In this document: one piece after another, positions 22,401 to 32,642 of the stretch | Position numbering within the stretch: position 1 is the first letter of the stretch | Layout of the letters: each line of letters opens with the position of its first letter | Position numbers and translations under genes: made by a program | The notes under the pieces: generated by a model | Database searches by the model: none | The model's input: the letters and a program-made list of their open reading frames with translations, nothing else | Told to the model about the DNA's origin: nothing | Assembly: GCA_024641705.1 (NCBI GenBank) | Contig: JAHECO010000017.1 | Coordinates: forward strand, 16,168-80,167 | Length of the DNA stretch: 64,000 nt | Direction: 5' to 3' | DNA from: Candidatus Kryptoniota bacterium | Lineage (GTDB): Bacteria; Bacteroidota; Ignavibacteria; Kryptoniales; JAKASW01

Positions 22401-22523
22401 TTAAAGGGCCGCTGGTGGCGCCCTTATCCTGATTGTGCCAAGCAGCTTTTCGCCTTGCTTGGATCGAAAGTAAACGCGAAACCCCTCGTGGTTACGCTGC
22501 GGGATGATTTGATTCTGTTGCAT
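22401..22523 (-). pseudogene. Truncated homologue of gene 28216..28647
   Basis: MQQNQIIPQRNHEGFRVYFRSKQGEKLLGTI vs ...LQPNHDGLRLFLHSKEGQRLLGII. Confidence 0.75.
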
Positions 22524-22546
22524 TGTCCTTTCTCCGTGTTAAATGC

Positions 22547-22602
22547 AGAGGGCAGCGGGACAATGCAAAGCCGAACGTGGGGACGGAGACCGCTGCTTCT
22601 CT
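22547..22602 (-). ncRNA. Candidate antisense leader hairpin (relic copy)
   Basis: Stem GCAGCGG/CCGCTGC; loop boxes complementary to RBS region (ACGGAGA) and start region (GGACAATGCAA) of the downstream ORF. Confidence 0.55.
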
Positions 22603-22743
22603 CAAAATCTTGGACTTAGTGGAAATATTTTTGTCCGGCTTTATCATTGCCGTAGTAAACTAACATGGGGGGTGTTCGAGTGACGAGCCGTTCACCGGAT
22701 CGGTGAGGAGCTGTTCACCAAATGGTTGGCTGTGACTTAAGAC

Positions 22744-24042: not shown

Positions 24043-24063
24043 ATAGCTGACAATACGGCTGTG

Positions 24064-24220
24064 TCAATGCCCCTCCAGCATCTTCACAGCCTTTGCCAAA
24101 TTCTCGCGCCGGACATGGCTGCAAACCACTGTTGTCTTTGATCCGCTGTAACTCTCAGCGAACCTATGGAGGGAAATGAATTGGGGCGTTTAGGGATTAC
24201 TCAGCTTGTTTTTGAATCCG
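24064..24220 (-). pseudogene. Internally deleted integrase relic
   Basis: Reads FKNKLSNP*TPQFISLHRFAESYS fused to KTTVVCSHVRRENLAKAVKMLEGH, matching N- and C-terminal pieces of integrase 31366..32454; catalytic Tyr changed to Cys. Confidence 0.85.
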
Positions 24221-24328
24221 GGATGGTACAACAGATTGTAGAGTAAACTCTACAGTCCAAGATGAAAAGGGATTGAAGGAAGGCCTTGGAAATCCGAAAT
24301 TCGCAATTCGAATTCCGAAATCTTATGA

Positions 24329-24378
24329 GTGGAGCTGAGGGGAATCGAACCCCTGACCTCGTGAATGCCATTCACGCG
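24329..24378 (-). repeat. att site: duplicated 3' part of tRNA-Ala
   Basis: 50-bp direct repeat of 32569..32618 with one mismatch (24343 A vs 32583 G). Confidence 0.95.
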
Positions 24379-25601: not shown

Positions 25602-27065
25602 TTAAAATGGCAAGTTATCTTTTTCGACCTCGACCGCGCCGAAGTCCTCAAGCGTGCATGCGGCTTGATTGTGATTCTCTGGCTTGCTTTGTTTTTGGTC
25701 GGCCTGACATAGGGCCGGACCGTCTCCGAAGTATGCCCCGCGATCACCATGGAAGGGCAGCTCAACCAAAATGCCGCTCTCACCGTCACCTTGCTTAGCA
25801 ATCTGAAGCATTGCTTTCCGTTCCTCGACTGGTCCGAAGGTGGAATCCGGCATCGGATTACTAAGCAGAAGGACTGTCCTGGCATCATACGATAACATGC
25901 CGGAATCCCTCATGTGCCCGAGTCCGGGCTGTGTAAAGTTTTCAGCCTCTTTGTTCAAAGGAGAGACGGTCAGAACGACTATTTCAAATTTAATGGCAAG
26001 CTGCGTGAGCTTCCATGAGAAATGAGCGACTTCGCGCTCCCGGTTTTGGAATCTCTCTTTGGGATCCGATGCGAGTTTCCCTATGTGATCCACCACAACG
26101 AATTTGACTCCACGGTCCCGGACAAGTTTCTCGATTCTCAAACAAAGCTCGTTCACGGTCAAATCCGGTGTGCAGTCAAGAAAAAGCCTTCCCTGTCTCC
26201 GGCGATAATCCTGCACCGCGTTAGTATAACGCTTCGCGTCTTCTTTGGAATCGAAAAACGAATTAGGATTGCTCGCTTTGTGGATCGGCACTCTGCCAAG
26301 CTGAGCAATCGCCCGCGTCACCATTCGTGGCTTTGACATTTCGAGGCTGAAGTATCCCGTTGGAACGATTCGAGAAATACTCAGGAGTATTTGCAGGGCA
26401 AAGCTGCTCTTTCCGGTTCCGGTGTTTCCTGCAAGGACGACTGAATCCCCGAATTGGAATCCACCACCGAGTCTTGAATCAAGCTCAGCGAATCCGGTTC
26501 CAAGGAGACCAACTTCACCACGGTTGAAGCGTTCAACGTGCTCAAGATACACCTTCAGGCTTTCTTCGGTGTCCGTCACCGCCTTGGATTGCTTGCGGAA
26601 GGAGAGGAGCTTGTCAAGTTGTTCTCTCTGTGAATCTGCTAACGCAAACGGGTCACCCCCGCCATTGTAACACTGCTGAATGTTGTCCGTGTTGCTTTCA
26701 ATGATACTTCTGAGCATAAATTTTTCGGCTACTATTTGGCAGTGTGCTTCAATATTGACAGTAGAAACGACAGAGTTCACAACCTCATTTAGGTATGCCG
26801 AACCCCCGACGTTTTCAAGTTTGCCCCGCTTCCTCAGCGCCTCTCGCACTGTGATAACGTCAACGGCTGTGCCTGCGTTCTGAAGTTCAAGCATTGCTTG
26901 GAAAGCTGTCCCGTTAGCTGTAGAGTAGAAAGATTCAGGCTGCAAGAGTTCTCGCGCCACGGTTAAAGCATCTGTGGGGCTTAGAAGAATGGCTCCGAGC
27001 ACCGCTCTTTCAGCCTCGATGTCTTGCGGTGGAATGTGTCCACCTTGTTCAAATTCTGCGCTCAT
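25602..27065 (-). CDS. DnaB-like replicative helicase (element-borne)
   Basis: PPQDIEAERAVLGAIL, Walker A GNTGTGKS, FSLEMS, RDSGMLSYDA; ATGA overlap with rep stop. Confidence 0.93.
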   Translation of the reverse strand: MSAEFEQGGHIPPQDIEAERAVLGAILLSPTDALTVARELLQPESFYSTANGTAFQAMLELQNAGTAVDVITVREALRKRGKLENVGGSAYLNEVVNSVVSTVNIEAHCQIVAEKFMLRSIIESNTDNIQQCYNGGGDPFALADSQREQLDKLLSFRKQSKAVTDTEESLKVYLEHVERFNRGEVGLLGTGFAELDSRLGGGFQFGDSVVLAGNTGTGKSSFALQILLSISRIVPTGYFSLEMSKPRMVTRAIAQLGRVPIHKASNPNSFFDSKEDAKRYTNAVQDYRRRQGRLFLDCTPDLTVNELCLRIEKLVRDRGVKFVVVDHIGKLASDPKERFQNREREVAHFSWKLTQLAIKFEIVVLTVSPLNKEAENFTQPGLGHMRDSGMLSYDARTVLLLSNPMPDSTFGPVEERKAMLQIAKQGDGESGILVELPFHGDRGAYFGDGPALCQADQKQSKPENHNQAACTLEDFGAVEVEKDNLPF

Positions 27066-27948
27066 GCCTGCACTCCCTTCCTTGTCAATCCTAACCTTTG
27101 GCATTCTGCCAGGGGGTTCTTGTAGCCCCGGTAATGCACCAACTCGGTCCCCGGAATCCATTTGAAGGCATCCTTTGAGTCGAAGCATCTTCTCACAAGC
27201 TCCACGGCTAATAGTTGCGGAACATCTTGCTCGATCAATTCCTTCGGTTCTTCTTTGCCCGGAAGATAGTCCTTGAATCGCTCAGCCCTGCCAAAGAAGT
27301 TTTGCGGCTGAATCCTGTATTGTCTGTCTTGACTCATGCCGTTTTGTGAGTAGCGGTCAATGCAAGCGATAAGTTGTTCCTTCGTGAATCCAGAGTTCAA
27401 CCGCTTTTTGATGCTGTTCTTTGCATCTGTAGCAGCTCCCGGCCTAACCGTCTTCTTGTAGTGCTCATAGATTTCCTCCGAAACGGTAATATCTTTTCTG
27501 TATTCTATAGTCTCTATCTGTGTCACTTTGTTGTCACTTTGTTGTTCCTTTGCTGTCACTTCCGCTGTTATTTTTGTTGTCACCTTTGTTGTTACTTCGT
27601 TAATATCGCCTGTTCCATTTCCTTGATAGAGAGCCCAATTTTTCACGATTATCGTGGAATACTTGTTGTTACTTTTGGTGTCAATGTTGCCTGTCCTTTT
27701 CAGTGTCACGATTGCTTTCCAAAACGTACTCGGTTTTAATCCGCACTCGGCACTTCCGGTGAACCGCCCGGATACAAAGGAACCCGGCTGTGAAGCTCGA
27801 CCTCCTTTCCGTCAATCAGTGCCTTCGCCGGGAAATGGTTCGCCCGTAACAAGGCCCACGACCAAACGCGCCACAGCGTCTTGTTCTGCCAGACGGCACT
27901 GTCCAGGCTCTTAACATACAACTTGAGCCATGCTCGTTTATTGCTCAT
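27062..27948 (-). pseudogene. Phage replisome-organiser-like initiator with a 2-bp frameshift at ~27791-27792
   Basis: MSNKRAWLKLY...LLRANH...EL continues in another frame as QPGSFVSGRF...NNKYSTIIVKNWALYQ; removing one CA gives 294 aa. Confidence 0.75.
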
Positions 27949-28219
27949 TGTCGGCCCCCGGTTCATCGTTGAGTGATTCCAGTAACTCGGAGAGGTCGAT
28001 TCCTTCGGCTTCAAGCTGGATCGCATCGGAACAAAGGAAATAAGCTTCAGTCAGGCTGTCTAATCCGGTCGAAACACTGTCAAGCAGTTTTTTCTTGAGC
28101 CTGTTTTCCGGTGACTCGCTGACAGTTGCTTTGCTCAATTCCCGATACTCGCTTTCGATTGAGCGAATGAGATTCGACAGGGTGATTTGCAGGTCGGGTA
28201 GCTTTTCCTGGAGTGTCAT
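27938..28219 (-). CDS. Hypothetical protein
   Basis: Overlaps both neighbours (ATGA coupling with the upstream gene). Confidence 0.65.
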   Translation of the reverse strand: MTLQEKLPDLQITLSNLIRSIESEYRELSKATVSESPENRLKKKLLDSVSTGLDSLTEAYFLCSDAIQLEAEGIDLSELLESLNDEPGADNEQ

Positions 28220-28647
28220 GGCATGACCTCCGAGAAAAGGGAGGGCTGAACCACTTGAAGGGGCTGAACTGACCGGCCTTCGCCGCGAATGATTGTCAGA
28301 GGTAAAATGACCTGAGACTCACAAGCGTTCTGAAAGTGCATCCACCGTGTGCCCTGAATGAGCCAGGTGTCCCGTGCGATACGGTGATGCTCTTTCCGTC
28401 CGTCTGCATGTTGAATTGTTAGCTCAATCCATCGAAACGGAAAGTGTCTCTGGTCTCGAAGCAATTCGGAATTGACTCCATAGCCGCCGATAGCTCGGAA
28501 GAAATGCCTCCTTTCATCTCGGAAGACTCGGAGCGTATCCCGAACAATAATGCCAAGAAGCCTTTGACCTTCCTTGCTGTGGAGAAAAAGCCGTAAACCG
28601 TCGTGGTTAGGTTGAAGCGTAATTTCTGAGGGCGTTGTTGTCTGCAT
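28216..28647 (-). CDS. Hypothetical protein 'gene X', first gene of the replication operon
   Basis: GGGAG RBS then ATG CAG ACA; homologous fragment in the relic element. Confidence 0.75.
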   Translation of the reverse strand: MQTTTPSEITLQPNHDGLRLFLHSKEGQRLLGIIVRDTLRVFRDERRHFFRAIGGYGVNSELLRDQRHFPFRWIELTIQHADGRKEHHRIARDTWLIQGTRWMHFQNACESQVILPLTIIRGEGRSVQPLQVVQPSLFSEVMP

Positions 28648-28678
28648 GGTTTTTACTCCCAAGAAAAGATTGAGTTAG

Positions 28679-28734
28679 AAAAAAATAGACGGCAGGAGAG
28701 TTTATGCAGACTTCACCTTGGAAACCCGCCGTCT
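28679..28734 (-). ncRNA. Candidate antisense leader hairpin/attenuator
   Basis: Stem AGACGGCGGG/CCTGCCGTCT followed by U7; loop boxes TTCCAAG and GTCTGCAT complementary to CTTGGGA (RBS) and ATGCAGAC (start). Confidence 0.6.
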
Positions 28735-28845
28735 GAAAATTGTTTGTTGGATTATATGGTAAAGTCTTTATCACAAACTCTACCAGTAAGTTATGGCGAT
28801 TTTTAGACGTGACAGTCTTGGGAGATTTGTCACGCTTTCTTTTGT

Positions 28846-29583
28846 CTATCTGATTATGAGACCATCCCGATATTCGAGCATATTTTTTTCTGCCATCTTC
28901 TCAATTAGAGCCTTTATCTCTGTCCACGGTTTGCCGATTGCGTCAACAAGTTGCTGCTCGGTCTTAAAGTCCGTGTCCCCGGCACGCACTGCGTCCAGAA
29001 TCTGTTTTTCTTCTTCGGTTCTTGTTTCCTCTCGCTTGTCTCCAGTCTTGTCGATGTATCTTTGTTTCAGCTTTCTTAAAGTGACATCCGAAGCATCAAG
29101 GAATCTTTTGGCGTACGGGAGTAACTCCCTAAACGTGTTTCTTGATCGGCACAGTATTTCTTTTATATCATTGTCCATTCCTTTTGTCACCGGGAGTTTT
29201 CCAAAATATGGGTCGCTTAATTCCTCTGCCATGGCGTCCTCAGGTGCCTTATAAGGGTGGCTCTCCATAATGCGGTTAAATTGATTCTGAATATAGTCGG
29301 CACGTTCCGCCTTGGCCCTGATGCTCTCAAAATATTCATTCTCGCATTTCTCCATGCCTGACTTTAATCGCCATTGAAGAATTTCATTACCTTCTGGGAA
29401 TAACTTGGAGATTCCATCAAGAAGAGCTTCACGTTCGCGTCCAAAGGGTGTCATGGTGGGAGCATCGCCAAACTTCTGCCGATGTTGCTCAATCAATTTA
29501 GCAATCGTTTGAAGTGTGAAATCTATCCGAGCATTTATTTCCATCTCAGTAAGTCCGTTAGAATTATTCGCTTGTTCCATCAT
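28846..29583 (-). CDS. Hypothetical protein with possible C-terminal winged helix
   Basis: 245-aa ORF with GAGG RBS; EQQLVDAIGKPWTEIKALIEKMAEKNMLEY. Confidence 0.7.
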   Translation of the reverse strand: MMEQANNSNGLTEMEINARIDFTLQTIAKLIEQHRQKFGDAPTMTPFGREREALLDGISKLFPEGNEILQWRLKSGMEKCENEYFESIRAKAERADYIQNQFNRIMESHPYKAPEDAMAEELSDPYFGKLPVTKGMDNDIKEILCRSRNTFRELLPYAKRFLDASDVTLRKLKQRYIDKTGDKREETRTEEEKQILDAVRAGDTDFKTEQQLVDAIGKPWTEIKALIEKMAEKNMLEYRDGLIIR

Positions 29584-30312: not shown

Positions 30313-30966
30313 TCACTTAATCAGTCCTTGTCCGAAAACAGAAATCACTCTGTCAATAGCTGAATCCGGTGGTCGCTTGAGTGAAGTCCTGATCACATCC
30401 CTTGACAGTTTAAGGGATTTGTACATCCTCTCGGCAATGAAGTCCGCGAGTTCATTCGGACTGAAGAACTGTGCCTTTTGAATTTCTTCCAGATGTTCCC
30501 TTACCCAATCAATCACAAATTGGTCGAAGATTTGGCTCGGCAATAGTAGCTGCGAAGCCATGGTACGAGCTTGCTGCTCAATCCGTTTGTATTCTTCGTC
30601 GCTGAACGAAGCGTGATACGACTGCACTTCATCAAGCGTGGTGATTCCAGCAATCAGTTTTTCATGGAGCAAGATATGTGCTAATTCTTCTGCAAGTGTG
30701 AATCTGAAATAGAATTCTTGCGATTCGGATTCGTAATGGTTTTCATCAATGGCTAAGGCGTAACCACCGATAGTTTTCAGAACCGCACCTTTGACTCCAA
30801 AATCTTCATACATGCGATTCACCGGGTGAATTTCAATTCCTGCTTTGTCAAGAAGAACTTCGATGTCGATCGGCAGCGAGTTATCTTTTGGAAAGCCATG
30901 GCGTTTGAGGAATTGAGCTGCACGAGTTTTGTAATCGGAGAAGCTGTAATATGGAACGCTTGCCAT
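30313..30966 (-). CDS. ImmA/IrrE-family protein with variant EExxH motif
   Basis: LPIDIE, RFTLAEELAHILLH, IEQQARTMASQLLLP. Confidence 0.85.
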   Translation of the reverse strand: MASVPYYSFSDYKTRAAQFLKRHGFPKDNSLPIDIEVLLDKAGIEIHPVNRMYEDFGVKGAVLKTIGGYALAIDENHYESESQEFYFRFTLAEELAHILLHEKLIAGITTLDEVQSYHASFSDEEYKRIEQQARTMASQLLLPSQIFDQFVIDWVREHLEEIQKAQFFSPNELADFIAERMYKSLKLSRDVIRTSLKRPPDSAIDRVISVFGQGLIK

Positions 30967-31331
30967 CAGAATTCTTTGTTGATTCTTTCTGTCAGTTCCT
31001 TGAGTTGTTCATCCGTCAGTTGCTTGCTCGCAATTGTCCTGAGCAGTACAGGCAGGTATTCGTATTCCTGCACGCTCTCGGCAATATCCTCCGGCAATTT
31101 CCCGACAGCGAGATTTCCAAGGTCGATGAGCTTTTTCTTTTCTTCGGCGTCGAGCTTTAATCCCTTGGCGATTCTTTCTAAAACTTCAGGCTTTTGCGGT
31201 GGCTTAGTTATGCCGCGTTCGAGCTTGGAATAGTTGCCAACATCCATGGCGATTTTGTGAGCAAATTCCCTCATCCCGATTTCTCTGGATTGCCTGAGTA
31301 TCCGCAAGAATTCGTGGAATAACATTTTCAT
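30966..31331 (-). CDS. XRE-family HTH repressor
   Basis: IGMREFAHKIAMDVGNYSKLERG; TGATG coupled to immA. Confidence 0.9.
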   Translation of the reverse strand: MKMLFHEFLRILRQSREIGMREFAHKIAMDVGNYSKLERGITKPPQKPEVLERIAKGLKLDAEEKKKLIDLGNLAVGKLPEDIAESVQEYEYLPVLLRTIASKQLTDEQLKELTERINKEF

Positions 31332-31365: not shown

Positions 31366-32454
31366 TCAGAAAGCGTTTGTCAAGTCAATTTGTCGGCTCT
31401 GTCGATGTCCCTCCAGCATCTTGACAGCATTAGCCAAGTCCTCACGTCGAACGTGACTGTAAATCATGGTTGTGGATATGTCGCTATGGCCTAAGACTTC
31501 TTTCACGACTGCAATCGGGACACCACGACGAACCATGTTTGAGGCTGTACTATGCCGGAGGCTGTGGAAATGCAGAGCTTCGCTGAGTCCTGAGGCCCGG
31601 ACGGCTTTCTTGAACTCTTTGCTTACAAAGTCCCGCTCATACCTCAAACCGGAATGCCTCTGAAAAACATAGTTCCTTGTTTCTCCGCCAAAGGCGGATG
31701 CGCCTCCGGTGCAGAGGTTGAAAACCTTCGGCTGTCTTCTGGTCAGCATTTCAAGCGCTGTTTGGTTTAGAGGAACCATGCGCTCTTTTTTGCTCTTCGT
31801 GGTGAATGTCTCGGTGTTAGAGACTTTGATTGTCCGTTCCGCAAGGTTGACGGCTTGCCATTCGAGATTAAGAAGCTCGGATAGCCTCAGGCCGGTGTGA
31901 AATGCTAAAGTGAAGAAGTCCTTCATGTCCGGCTTCGCTGTATGCTCAAGGATTGAATCCAGTTCGGTTTCCGTAATGAACACAGGGAGTTTCTTCGGAA
32001 TCTTTGACAGTTTGATTTTCTTTAGCGGATTATCGGAGAGACAATTCCATTCAATGGCTTTGCTGAACGCGGCTGCAAGCGTCCGGTGATACAGGTTGGC
32101 CGTGTTTTTGCTCTTCTCTGAAACGGAATCGAAGAAGGCTTCCAGCAATCTCCGGTCAGCATCTTTAAGGGGAATGTCCCCGGCGAAGCTCTCTAATGCT
32201 CCGAGACTTCGCTCGACGGTCAGGAAATAGTTTTCGGAATGTCGGTTCCTGACGTATTCGCTGTAACTGTCAGCGAACTTGTGAAGGGAAATGAATTGTG
32301 GCTTTTGGGACTGGCTCAGCTTGTCCTTGAATTCGGAAAGGAATCTTAGGGCCTCGTCTTTTCGTGTGGCATGGGTAGAGATTCGTTTCCTGCGGTTTTC
32401 AGTCTCGTCGAAATAATCGACGTAGAATTTGCCGCATCGTTTGAATAGAAACAT
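31366..32454 (-). CDS. Tyrosine integrase
   Basis: TGLRLSE, KSKK, HSLRH, LGH, MIY; GGAGG RBS; adjacent to the tRNA. Confidence 0.95.
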   Translation of the reverse strand: MFLFKRCGKFYVDYFDETENRRKRISTHATRKDEALRFLSEFKDKLSQSQKPQFISLHKFADSYSEYVRNRHSENYFLTVERSLGALESFAGDIPLKDADRRLLEAFFDSVSEKSKNTANLYHRTLAAAFSKAIEWNCLSDNPLKKIKLSKIPKKLPVFITETELDSILEHTAKPDMKDFFTLAFHTGLRLSELLNLEWQAVNLAERTIKVSNTETFTTKSKKERMVPLNQTALEMLTRRQPKVFNLCTGGASAFGGETRNYVFQRHSGLRYERDFVSKEFKKAVRASGLSEALHFHSLRHSTASNMVRRGVPIAVVKEVLGHSDISTTMIYSHVRREDLANAVKMLEGHRQSRQIDLTNAF

Positions 32455-32569
32455 GGTTTCCTCCAGTTCCCCCGGAAGGAACAGAAAAGCCACAAAGGAC
32501 TGTACACAAAATTGTACAGTTCAAATACGAACGGAATAGGGGGATGGGATTTGGGAAGATTGGAATTTG

Positions 32570-32642
32570 TGGAGCTGAGGGGGATCGAACCCCTGACCTC
32601 GTGAATGCCATTCACGCGCTCTCCCAGCTGAGCTACAGCCCC
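32570..32642 (-). tRNA. tRNA-Ala(GGC)
   Basis: GGGGCTGTAGCTCAGCTGGGAGAGCGCGTGAATGGCATTCACGAGGTCAGGGGTTCGATCCCCCTCAGCTCCA; CCA not encoded. Confidence 0.97.

Follow-up and report, generated by a model that had tools for sequence, protein, structure and literature searches.

A candidate translated-leader RNA switch preceding the replication genes of a small integrative element from an uncultured Bacteroidota-labelled clade

The island, its gene X and the leader

The window analyzed here, a 64,000-nt stretch of DNA from a Candidatus Kryptoniota bacterium whose first letter is position 1 for all coordinates given, contains an 8.2-kb island. At either end of the island lies one copy of a 50-nt direct repeat that matches the 3' half of a tRNA-Ala gene (24329-24378 and 32569-32618). 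All genes of the island lie on the minus strand. The first three encode an integrase (31366-32493), an XRE-type HTH protein (30966-31331) and an M78/ImmA-type peptidase (30313-30966); proteins of 153 and 245 aa that belong to no family follow, and then the leader studied here. Beyond the leader are gene X, a 93-aa protein, a DnaD-like replication initiator that is present as two pieces, a DnaB helicase and a 103-aa protein. A preliminary description of this DNA had credited the element with XRE and ImmA-type control genes, and both are found in the island. Left of the tRNA-Ala repeat lies a second, reduced element, called the relic below, which retains an integrase remnant, two ORFs and an XRE/ImmA pair, together with a leader and a truncated gene X' of its own.

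Gene X (28216..28647, minus strand) is the first gene of the replication module and encodes a protein of 143 aa with no Pfam or PHROG family. Its fold is predicted with confidence (mean pLDDT 79). The likeness of this fold to PD-(D/E)xK nucleases is weak (best Foldseek E = 0.017; VIA Z = 5.5 and 5.3), and a PD-(D/E)xK assignment was rejected, as these scores lie below the level that would mean more than a common arrangement. The disordered C-terminus carries Q134-x-x-L137-F138, which is invariant or nearly so across the family and which we take to resemble the sliding-clamp-binding motif. When the complex of the gene X protein with the genome's own DnaN was predicted, residues 131-138 occupied the clamp pocket with a score of 0.64, compared to 0.00 for the best of three controls; contacts agreed between runs by at least 72%, and the partner pLDDT was at least 43. 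The mark for this score is reached by 58 of 80 solved complexes and by 2 of 110 mismatched pairs, and since clamp-peptide complexes have already been solved, a pass for gene X and DnaN may reflect likeness only. The C-terminal tail of the gene X protein is thus predicted, from modeling, to dock on the host sliding clamp.

The leader of gene X is dominated by a hairpin, S1, on the minus strand. Its 5' arm AGACGGCGGG (28725..28734, read 28734-28725) and 3' arm CCUGCCGUCU (28687..28696) form a stem of ten pairs, seven of them G-C and one G-U, around a 28-nt "loop" designated segment L (28697..28724), and a U7 tract (28679..28685) makes up a terminator-like tail. This is the 10-bp stem and U7 of the preliminary description, with one A intervening between the 3' arm and the U tract. 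Folded alone (65 nt), S1 reaches -18.9 kcal/mol (z = -3.4), a value matched by none of 200 shuffles; for the same hairpin in a 111-nt context z is only -0.7. The GC-rich stem and U tract are those of an intrinsic terminator. A terminator scan did not list the window hairpin, the scan allowing loops of 3-8 nt as against the 28-nt loop here. Only 30 nt separate the U tract from the gene X ATG, leaving no space for a separate gene X promoter, and gene X must therefore be transcribed through the hairpin.

Within L, box 1 (UUCCAAG, 28723-28717) is complementary, with one G-U pair, to CUUGGGA (28663-28657) in the RBS of gene X, and box 2 (GUCUGCAU, 28711-28704) is the perfect complement of AUGCAGAC (28647-28640) at the gene X start; the two targets delimit the translation start region (28640..28663). 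Both pairings had been proposed previously, as had the fact that the boxes stand in the same 5'-3' order as their targets, and all of this is borne out. Two further features of the region may be recorded here. Directly after the stop codon of the 245-aa gene lies another minus-strand hairpin, CGUGACA-N13-UGUCACG (28808..28834), the loop of which (CUCCCAAGA) is perfectly complementary over 9 nt to the RBS region of gene X; this hairpin is not kept in the related leader L006. A 10-codon plus-strand ORF (MQTSPWKPAV) with AGGAG before it was considered and set aside as a by-product of the inverted box.

The preliminary description treated the system as having two parts, the loop and the gene X start, and overlooked an ORF in which the hairpin lies. 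This leader ORF (uORF; 28607..28774, minus strand) starts with GTG at 28774, runs for 55 codons through the hairpin, and ends, in frame +2 with respect to gene X, 38 nt past its ATG, so that an upstream ORF overlaps the start of the putatively regulated gene as in translational coupling. Its start codon falls in segment U (28758..28781, minus strand), in which AGAGUUU and AGACUUUACC pair with AAACUCU and GGUGAAGUCU of the loop. The loop-to-start pairing of the earlier account stands, and the system has three parts rather than two, because the loop is also the 3' strand of a U:L helix. Segment L is complementary to two flanking translation start regions, one upstream and one downstream.

Pairing segments and open frames in related leaders

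Eight close homologues of gene X (62-76% identity) were found in a large protein collection, and four homologue loci (L006-L009) were recovered with their flanks. A profile search, with a profile that took in three distant gene X homologues (A2), detected family members in 30 of the 401 genomes sampled from the class to which the window belongs, a tally that counts the unpublished genome G668, whose sequence enters no analysis and underlies no claim. The gene X protein alone as query gave only three weak matches among the 401 sampled genomes, and a scan of viral contigs returned no relatives. Related loci with flanks of sufficient length have an integrase gene upstream and p93, rep and DnaB genes downstream, and represent the same type of element. 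Up to 35 leaders were compared, including that of the relic and a few extra places, with the start codons of the homologues picked by eye from the profile match and the RBS; many of the loci are mutually related, so the counts that follow overstate independence. A MAFFT alignment of seven leaders was structurally inconsistent and was left out of the pair counts.

Complementarity between box 2 and the start was assessed by comparing the upstream sequence (-150 to -21) of each leader with its own start region (-20 to +14) and with those of other loci. Watson-Crick runs of at least 9 nt occur in 9 of 28 own pairs and 18 of 754 cross pairs, and runs of at least 11 nt in 5 of 28 own pairs and 1 of 754 cross pairs. 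A single-locus 8-mer match is weak evidence on its own, as 61 of 754 cross pairs reach 8 nt. The pairing sequences differ among loci: L006 shares that of the window plus one pair, L009 and L011 have GCGUUGUCAUC:GAUGACAACGC, L008 has GUUGCAUUGUC:GACAAUGCAAC, and the pairings of L030, L036 and L039 extend over 13, 12 and 14 nt. Box 2 lies mostly in the 3' part of a 26-45-nt loop closed by an 8-13-bp hairpin. The covariation in homologues that the earlier proposal depended on is therefore present, and across the leaders compared, complementarity between loop and start is conserved and co-varies ahead of the replication module's first gene. Of the 20 leaders with large loops, 8 have a loop-to-start duplex energy better than at least 26 of their 27-28 cross controls; in the other 12 the pairing is at most marginal, and in about half of the 20 it is no better than average. 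As regards the two-box design first described, box 2 co-varies with the start as claimed, whereas box 1, the anti-RBS box, outdoes the majority of its cross controls in just six leaders out of 13, those of the window, the relic, L037, L011, L012 and L030, and fails in the remaining seven. The sequences of the S1 stem vary among loci yet still pair, indicating that S1 is conserved as a structure.

Segment U, located 20-65 nt ahead of the hairpin, shows complementarity of 15-25 bp with two-thirds of the loop, on the 3' side. For the window, RNAduplex gives U:L an energy of -25.2 kcal/mol against a cross-locus mean of -11.5, with 0 of 13 cross controls as good. The own U:L energy is better than all 13-14 cross controls in ten of 15 leaders, the others being the relic (-25.6 kcal/mol), L006 (-22.2), L014 (-29.4), L030 (-24.5), L015 (-26.3), L017 (-20.6), L016 (-19.1), L012 (-18.1) and L032 (-18.1). 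That of L011 is beaten by 2 of 14 cross controls, and those of L035, L036, L013 and L038 are not above their cross controls. The U of L012 repeats 30 nt of the gene X start region almost exactly, which suggests that U arose as a duplicate of that region, a decoy start site. The minimum-energy fold of the full window leader contains the U:L helix and not the hairpin. On its 3' strand the U:L helix ends directly against the 3' arm of S1, and the 5' arm is enclosed by the helix, a geometry from which we infer that the two structures are mutually exclusive; their energies are similar in size after the loop penalty. On this geometry the leader has the competing upstream helix of an attenuator.

The relic was described earlier as a sibling with the same architecture and other sequences, and its stem, loop and both boxes can indeed be located. 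The relic leader (22492..22647, minus strand) consists of a uORF with its ATG at 22647, a hairpin (22596-22552) with the stem GCAGCGG/CCGCUGC (22596-22590 and 22558-22552) and a 31-nt loop, and the start of the truncated gene X' (22523-22401, minus strand). Its box 1 pairing is UCUCCGU:ACGGAGA, and its box 2 pairing, UUGCAUUGUCC:GGACAAUGCAA, spans the ATG of truncated gene X' at 22523. Among the three sequences of the relic group (relic, L037 and L008), 17 U:L pairs are 92% paired, compared to 26-42% for slid controls, and two pairs are changed on both sides, although 116 of 500 shuffles reached the observed values, a control of low power for only three sequences. No both-sided changes were found in the S1 and loop-to-start pairs of the same three sequences, among which box 2 is invariant, so that this comparison carries little information.

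Exchanging partners between the window and relic leaders weakens both pairings. L pairs with its own start region at -14.7 and -15.0 kcal/mol and with that of the other leader at -7.1 and -7.9; for L and U the own energies are -25.2 and -25.6 and the cross energies -10.7 and -11.4. The two leaders are orthogonal by this measure, in agreement with the earlier suggestion that box sequences are set element by element. Such orthogonality fits element-specific control.

Leader ORFs are a recurrent feature. They are generally about 50-60 codons long, and in 12 related leaders their starts lie 115-136 nt ahead of the ATG and their ends 26-62 nt beyond it, mostly in frame +2; the leader ORF of L014 stops 4 nt before the ATG. 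Of 11 leaders picked solely for their U:L energy, 8 have a hairpin-crossing ORF (3.0 expected from shuffles); over all leaders the count is 19 of 31 (8.2 expected). A count of 12 of 12 against 1.2 expected is circular, as that group was picked partly by the uORF itself. The leader peptides are not conserved and show no alignment beyond nucleotide similarity, and most leader ORF starts in the related leaders examined have no Shine-Dalgarno sequence before them. Judged across these leaders, what is conserved is an open frame and not a protein.

Under a strict criterion, 14 of 35 leaders carry a U-rich-tailed hairpin no more than 75 nt from the ATG. In the 13 leaders with the three-way arrangement, the tail is U-rich in eight and weak or absent in five (relic, L008, L037, L011 and L032), so termination is not a universal output. 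Between U and the hairpin of the window is a -10-like TATAAT (28751..28756, minus strand), and 9 of 13 leaders, falling into five of nine sequence groups, have [ACT]ATA[AT]T at 22-36 nt ahead of the stem; a second motif, RATTTTS, stands immediately before the stem. These motifs between U and S1 fall in different uORF frames in different loci. The TATAAT could be an internal promoter or a processing site. It has no -35 partner and is not listed by a promoter scan of the window, in which counts were not above shuffles and no site fell at the leader; searching by eye for -35 partners, Bacteroidota-type -33/-7 boxes and a leaderless start also gave no convincing promoter. A search of sequencing runs turned up no RNA run that covers the region.

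Searches of Rfam at the gathering score identified only tRNA in the whole window and in 14 related loci, and at E values up to 10 the region 28560-28900 gave three chance-level matches (E = 1.2 to 8.7). The preliminary description had presented the feature as a candidate new RNA switch to be compared with c4/CI-type models, and with these models included in the comparison no family matches. Nor do the leaders contain the conserved ligand-binding core of a riboswitch, loop and stem sequences differing completely between loci.

A possible switch and its alternatives

We tentatively propose, with a confidence slightly short of even, that a translated-leader, three-way RNA switch that includes a trans-acting short RNA gates gene X and the replication genes. 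Where U pairs with L, the hairpin would be blocked and the gene X start would be free. Where U is unavailable, the GC-rich S1 would close around L, and S1 with the U tract could act as an intrinsic terminator, while the exposed L could cover the RBS and start of gene X, whether as a pseudoknot within one molecule or on a second molecule. The uORF, which spans the terminator and extends past the start of gene X, would add a further layer, as ribosomes translating it would unwind these structures, with no untranslated stretch in between. The short RNA, a hairpin with L free, may come from termination at the U tract, or from an internal start or cut between U and S1. Such an RNA would act on other transcripts of the same element type by binding U and the gene X start region, blocking both translation starts and favoring premature termination, so that the replication operon would be held off in proportion to the amount of short RNA. 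The outcome would be immunity or copy-number control with element-specific sequences, on top of the XRE/ImmA pair, and the leader switch probably keeps replication off. Action in trans is a putative part of the scheme, and this P4-like reading is favored because the target-regulator-target layout in the leader of a replication operon matches that of P4. Since U:L formed in cis leaves gene X unmasked by default, the switch would need an outside input, and none is apparent.

The main rival is a purely cis-acting device with no trans RNA, which we consider a rather doubtful but serious candidate. It would couple the uORF and gene X translationally, as in R1 tap-repA and IncI/IncB repY-repZ: L would lock the gene X start, ribosomes on the uORF would open it, and U:L would set how frequently the uORF is started. 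The hairpin and U tract would add ribosome-dependent attenuation, a mode of control known from pyrBI. Such a device accords with a uORF that crosses the hairpin and overlaps the gene X start, with the location of L inside the uORF, and with the similar stabilities of U:L and S1; plasmid precedents exist in the leader-peptide coupling of R1 and IncI2 and the IncI1/IncB pseudoknot, as described in passages of PMC8053102. Strict coupling is less obvious, however, as U:L frees the gene X start without uORF translation, and most uORFs lack a Shine-Dalgarno sequence. No sensed signal is apparent, and the conserved motifs between U and S1 would go unexplained. The present sequence data do not separate cis coupling or attenuation from the P4-like reading.

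An antisense RNA from the plus strand, similar to CopA or Inc RNA, could instead be the true regulator, with the hairpin and U as its targets. We regard this as improbable. The hairpin region does fold well on the plus strand (-16.9 kcal/mol, z = -3.2), a U-rich stretch follows the 28808-28834 hairpin on that strand, and the plasmid precedents given in the passages of PMC8053102 all have cis-encoded antisense RNAs. However, no promoter-like plus-strand site was found in 28600-28850 by a scan that covers sigma-70-type sites only, and the terminator-like feature of the plus strand is not kept in L006. An antisense RNA would also not need L to match sites 40-60 nt away on each side, yet those sites co-vary with L.

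Less likely still, and in our estimate very unlikely, is that the repeats function at the DNA level, for example as half-sites for the XRE repressor or another protein, with the RNA pairing incidental. Each box and its target do form inverted repeats in DNA, and an XRE repressor gene is nearby. The paired segments are nevertheless entirely different between loci and are always placed over a start codon or RBS, G-U pairs are tolerated, and lengths of 15-25 bp with bulges suit RNA helices and not operators. That the hairpin is an ordinary terminator of the upstream genes with complementarity by chance can be largely dismissed, for although a single 8-mer is not rare and the fold in its 111-nt context is unremarkable, the feature recurs with co-varying sequences in many loci and its short distance to the ATG forces read-through by gene X transcripts.

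The three-way switch with a trans-acting short RNA, if real, could be part of something broader, a sense-strand "anti-start-site" RNA system for immunity and copy control that is independent of those of P4 and P1 and in which the loop masks two starts, that of gene X and that of a decoy uORF derived originally from a copy of the gene X start region. We think this extension unlikely as it stands. Were it true, the first codons of the genes themselves would carry the specificity, making co-resident elements orthogonal, and an independent origin would place the system in integrative elements of an uncultured Bacteroidota-labelled clade.

The 13 three-way leaders, each with its own set of sequences, make up a natural collection of orthogonal candidate RNA switches with directly readable pairing rules, namely those of a loop against the start codon and first codons. 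The proposed switch is also tied to the product that it would gate, a predicted sliding-clamp binder heading the replication module.

Comparison with known systems

The attenuators of trp and pyrBI combine alternative antiterminator and terminator hairpins with a leader peptide. The leader described here resembles them in that either U:L or S1 can form before a U tract, exclusively if the geometry is a guide, and in the presence of a uORF. Unlike in trp and pyrBI, no regulatory codons are evident, the uORF start lies inside the antiterminator strand, and L also matches a downstream start.

In R1, IncI1 and IncB plasmids, a leader peptide is combined with pairing of a hairpin loop near the rep start, and one RNA controls two starts, according to passages of PMC8053102; the same passages report coupling through a leader peptide for R1 and IncI2 and, for IncI1/IncB, a pseudoknot close to the repZ start. 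The likeness to R1 tap/CopA and repY-repZ consists of a uORF overlapping the start of a replication-related gene and a loop complementary to sequence near that start. The plasmids, in contrast, use an opposite-strand RNA and, for activation, a pseudoknot, whereas no opposite-strand promoter was found here and the pairing covers the start codon itself.

IsrK of Gifsy-1 offers a precedent for a short RNA and a long transcript from one promoter. According to passages of PMC4825925, transcription from one promoter either terminates early, giving a short RNA, or reads through into an mRNA on which that short RNA acts; translation of a small ORF is coupled to that of the next gene, and the leader adopts alternative structures. 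Unlike the repression expected here, IsrK activates translation; there is no homology between the two, and the present system is known from sequence alone.

The c4 RNAs of P1 and P7 are same-strand RNAs that pair through two short boxes with the mRNA of their own operon, one set covering the ribosome binding site, and the sequence of the boxes sets the specificity of immunity. In contrast to c4, the present leader has no Rfam match, box 1 is optional (6 of 13 leaders), and the dominant partner of L is the uORF start.

The layout also resembles that of P4 CI (seqA, seqB and seqC); in P4, translation of leader ORFs counteracts termination. Passages of PMC4825925 describe a CI RNA that pairs with seqA upstream and seqC downstream of itself and prevents expression of the replication genes. 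Here too, the leader of the replication operon of an integrative element carries a structured RNA, in this case with a predicted short RNA, the window L is complementary to one upstream and one downstream site, and the outcome would be that the replication genes are off. Unlike P4 CI, the RNA described here has no Rfam match and comes from an unrelated host clade, both of its targets are translation start sites, the hairpin is crossed by a uORF, and many loci have a tail like that of an intrinsic terminator. To our knowledge, the reported cases of P4/P1-type RNA immunity come from a small number of enterobacterial phages and satellites. If a system of unrelated structure, here set in small XRE/ImmA islands of an uncultured clade, shares their target-regulator-target layout, this would suggest that the layout is a recurrent solution for silencing replication modules.

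Conserved motifs and candidate regulatory hairpins around the gene X leader

The leader ORF (28607-28774, minus strand) runs through hairpin S1, the terminator-like stem-loop at 28734-28687 on the same strand, and overlaps the start of gene X, the first gene of the island's replication module. Between the start of this ORF and hairpin S1 (28736-28756, minus strand) there are two short nucleotide motifs, one ATATT-like and the other RATTTTS, that are conserved at the equivalent place in 12 loci, with a reading frame that differs from locus to locus. In the leader of the related locus L012, a stretch of 30 nt approximately 120 nt upstream repeats, almost exactly, the RBS, ATG and opening codons of the gene X homologue, and this duplicate forms the start of the leader ORF. 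On the plus strand, an AGGAG followed by an ATG opens a 10-codon ORF (MQTSPWKPAV) inside hairpin S1 (28685-28735); this small ORF is most likely a side effect of the inverted box.

A further hairpin, CGUGACA-N13-UGUCACG, is found directly 3' of the 245-aa gene (28808-28834, minus strand). Its loop, CUCCCAAGA, is perfectly complementary over 9 nt to the gene X RBS region, and the hairpin shows no conservation in L006. It could serve as an operator, or as a second anti-RBS acting on read-through transcripts.

Gene X product, replication initiator and candidate origin

A conserved Q-x-x-L-F is present at the end of gene X, on a tail of low confidence (28216-28260, minus strand). Complex prediction with the genome's own sliding clamp, DnaN (window 28216-28260 with L044:721-1869), placed gene X residues 131-138 in a pocket of this protein with a score of 0.64 (best control 0.00). 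Gene X may encode a clamp-binding protein.

The DnaD-like replication initiator (27062-28026, minus strand) is split into two ORFs that differ in frame (27736-28026 and 27062-27709); each matches phrog_2514, and the two matches fall at successive profile positions. The initiator may be frameshifted, and the element may therefore be defective. Within the initiator gene, a 14-nt, TTTGTTGTCACTTT-like repeat (family D3) occurs six times (27527-27675), with copies spaced 11-12 nt and wider; these repeats are iteron-like and may mark a replication origin.

The relic element and its relatives

At 24056-24378, an integrase remnant whose two pieces share 79-80% identity with 31394-31473 and 32256-32341 adjoins another copy of the tRNA-Ala 3' half, an arrangement that indicates a tandem insertion of two elements at one site. 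The second, reduced element (the relic) carries a truncated gene X' of 40 aa (22401-22523, minus strand) with a C-terminal RIRAPPAAL, followed by XRE and ImmA genes. The same junction recurs in L037, from a second genome of this genus (XRE 89% and ImmA 78% identical), and L039 has a similar one; the relic junction looks like a conserved arrangement rather than the outcome of random decay.
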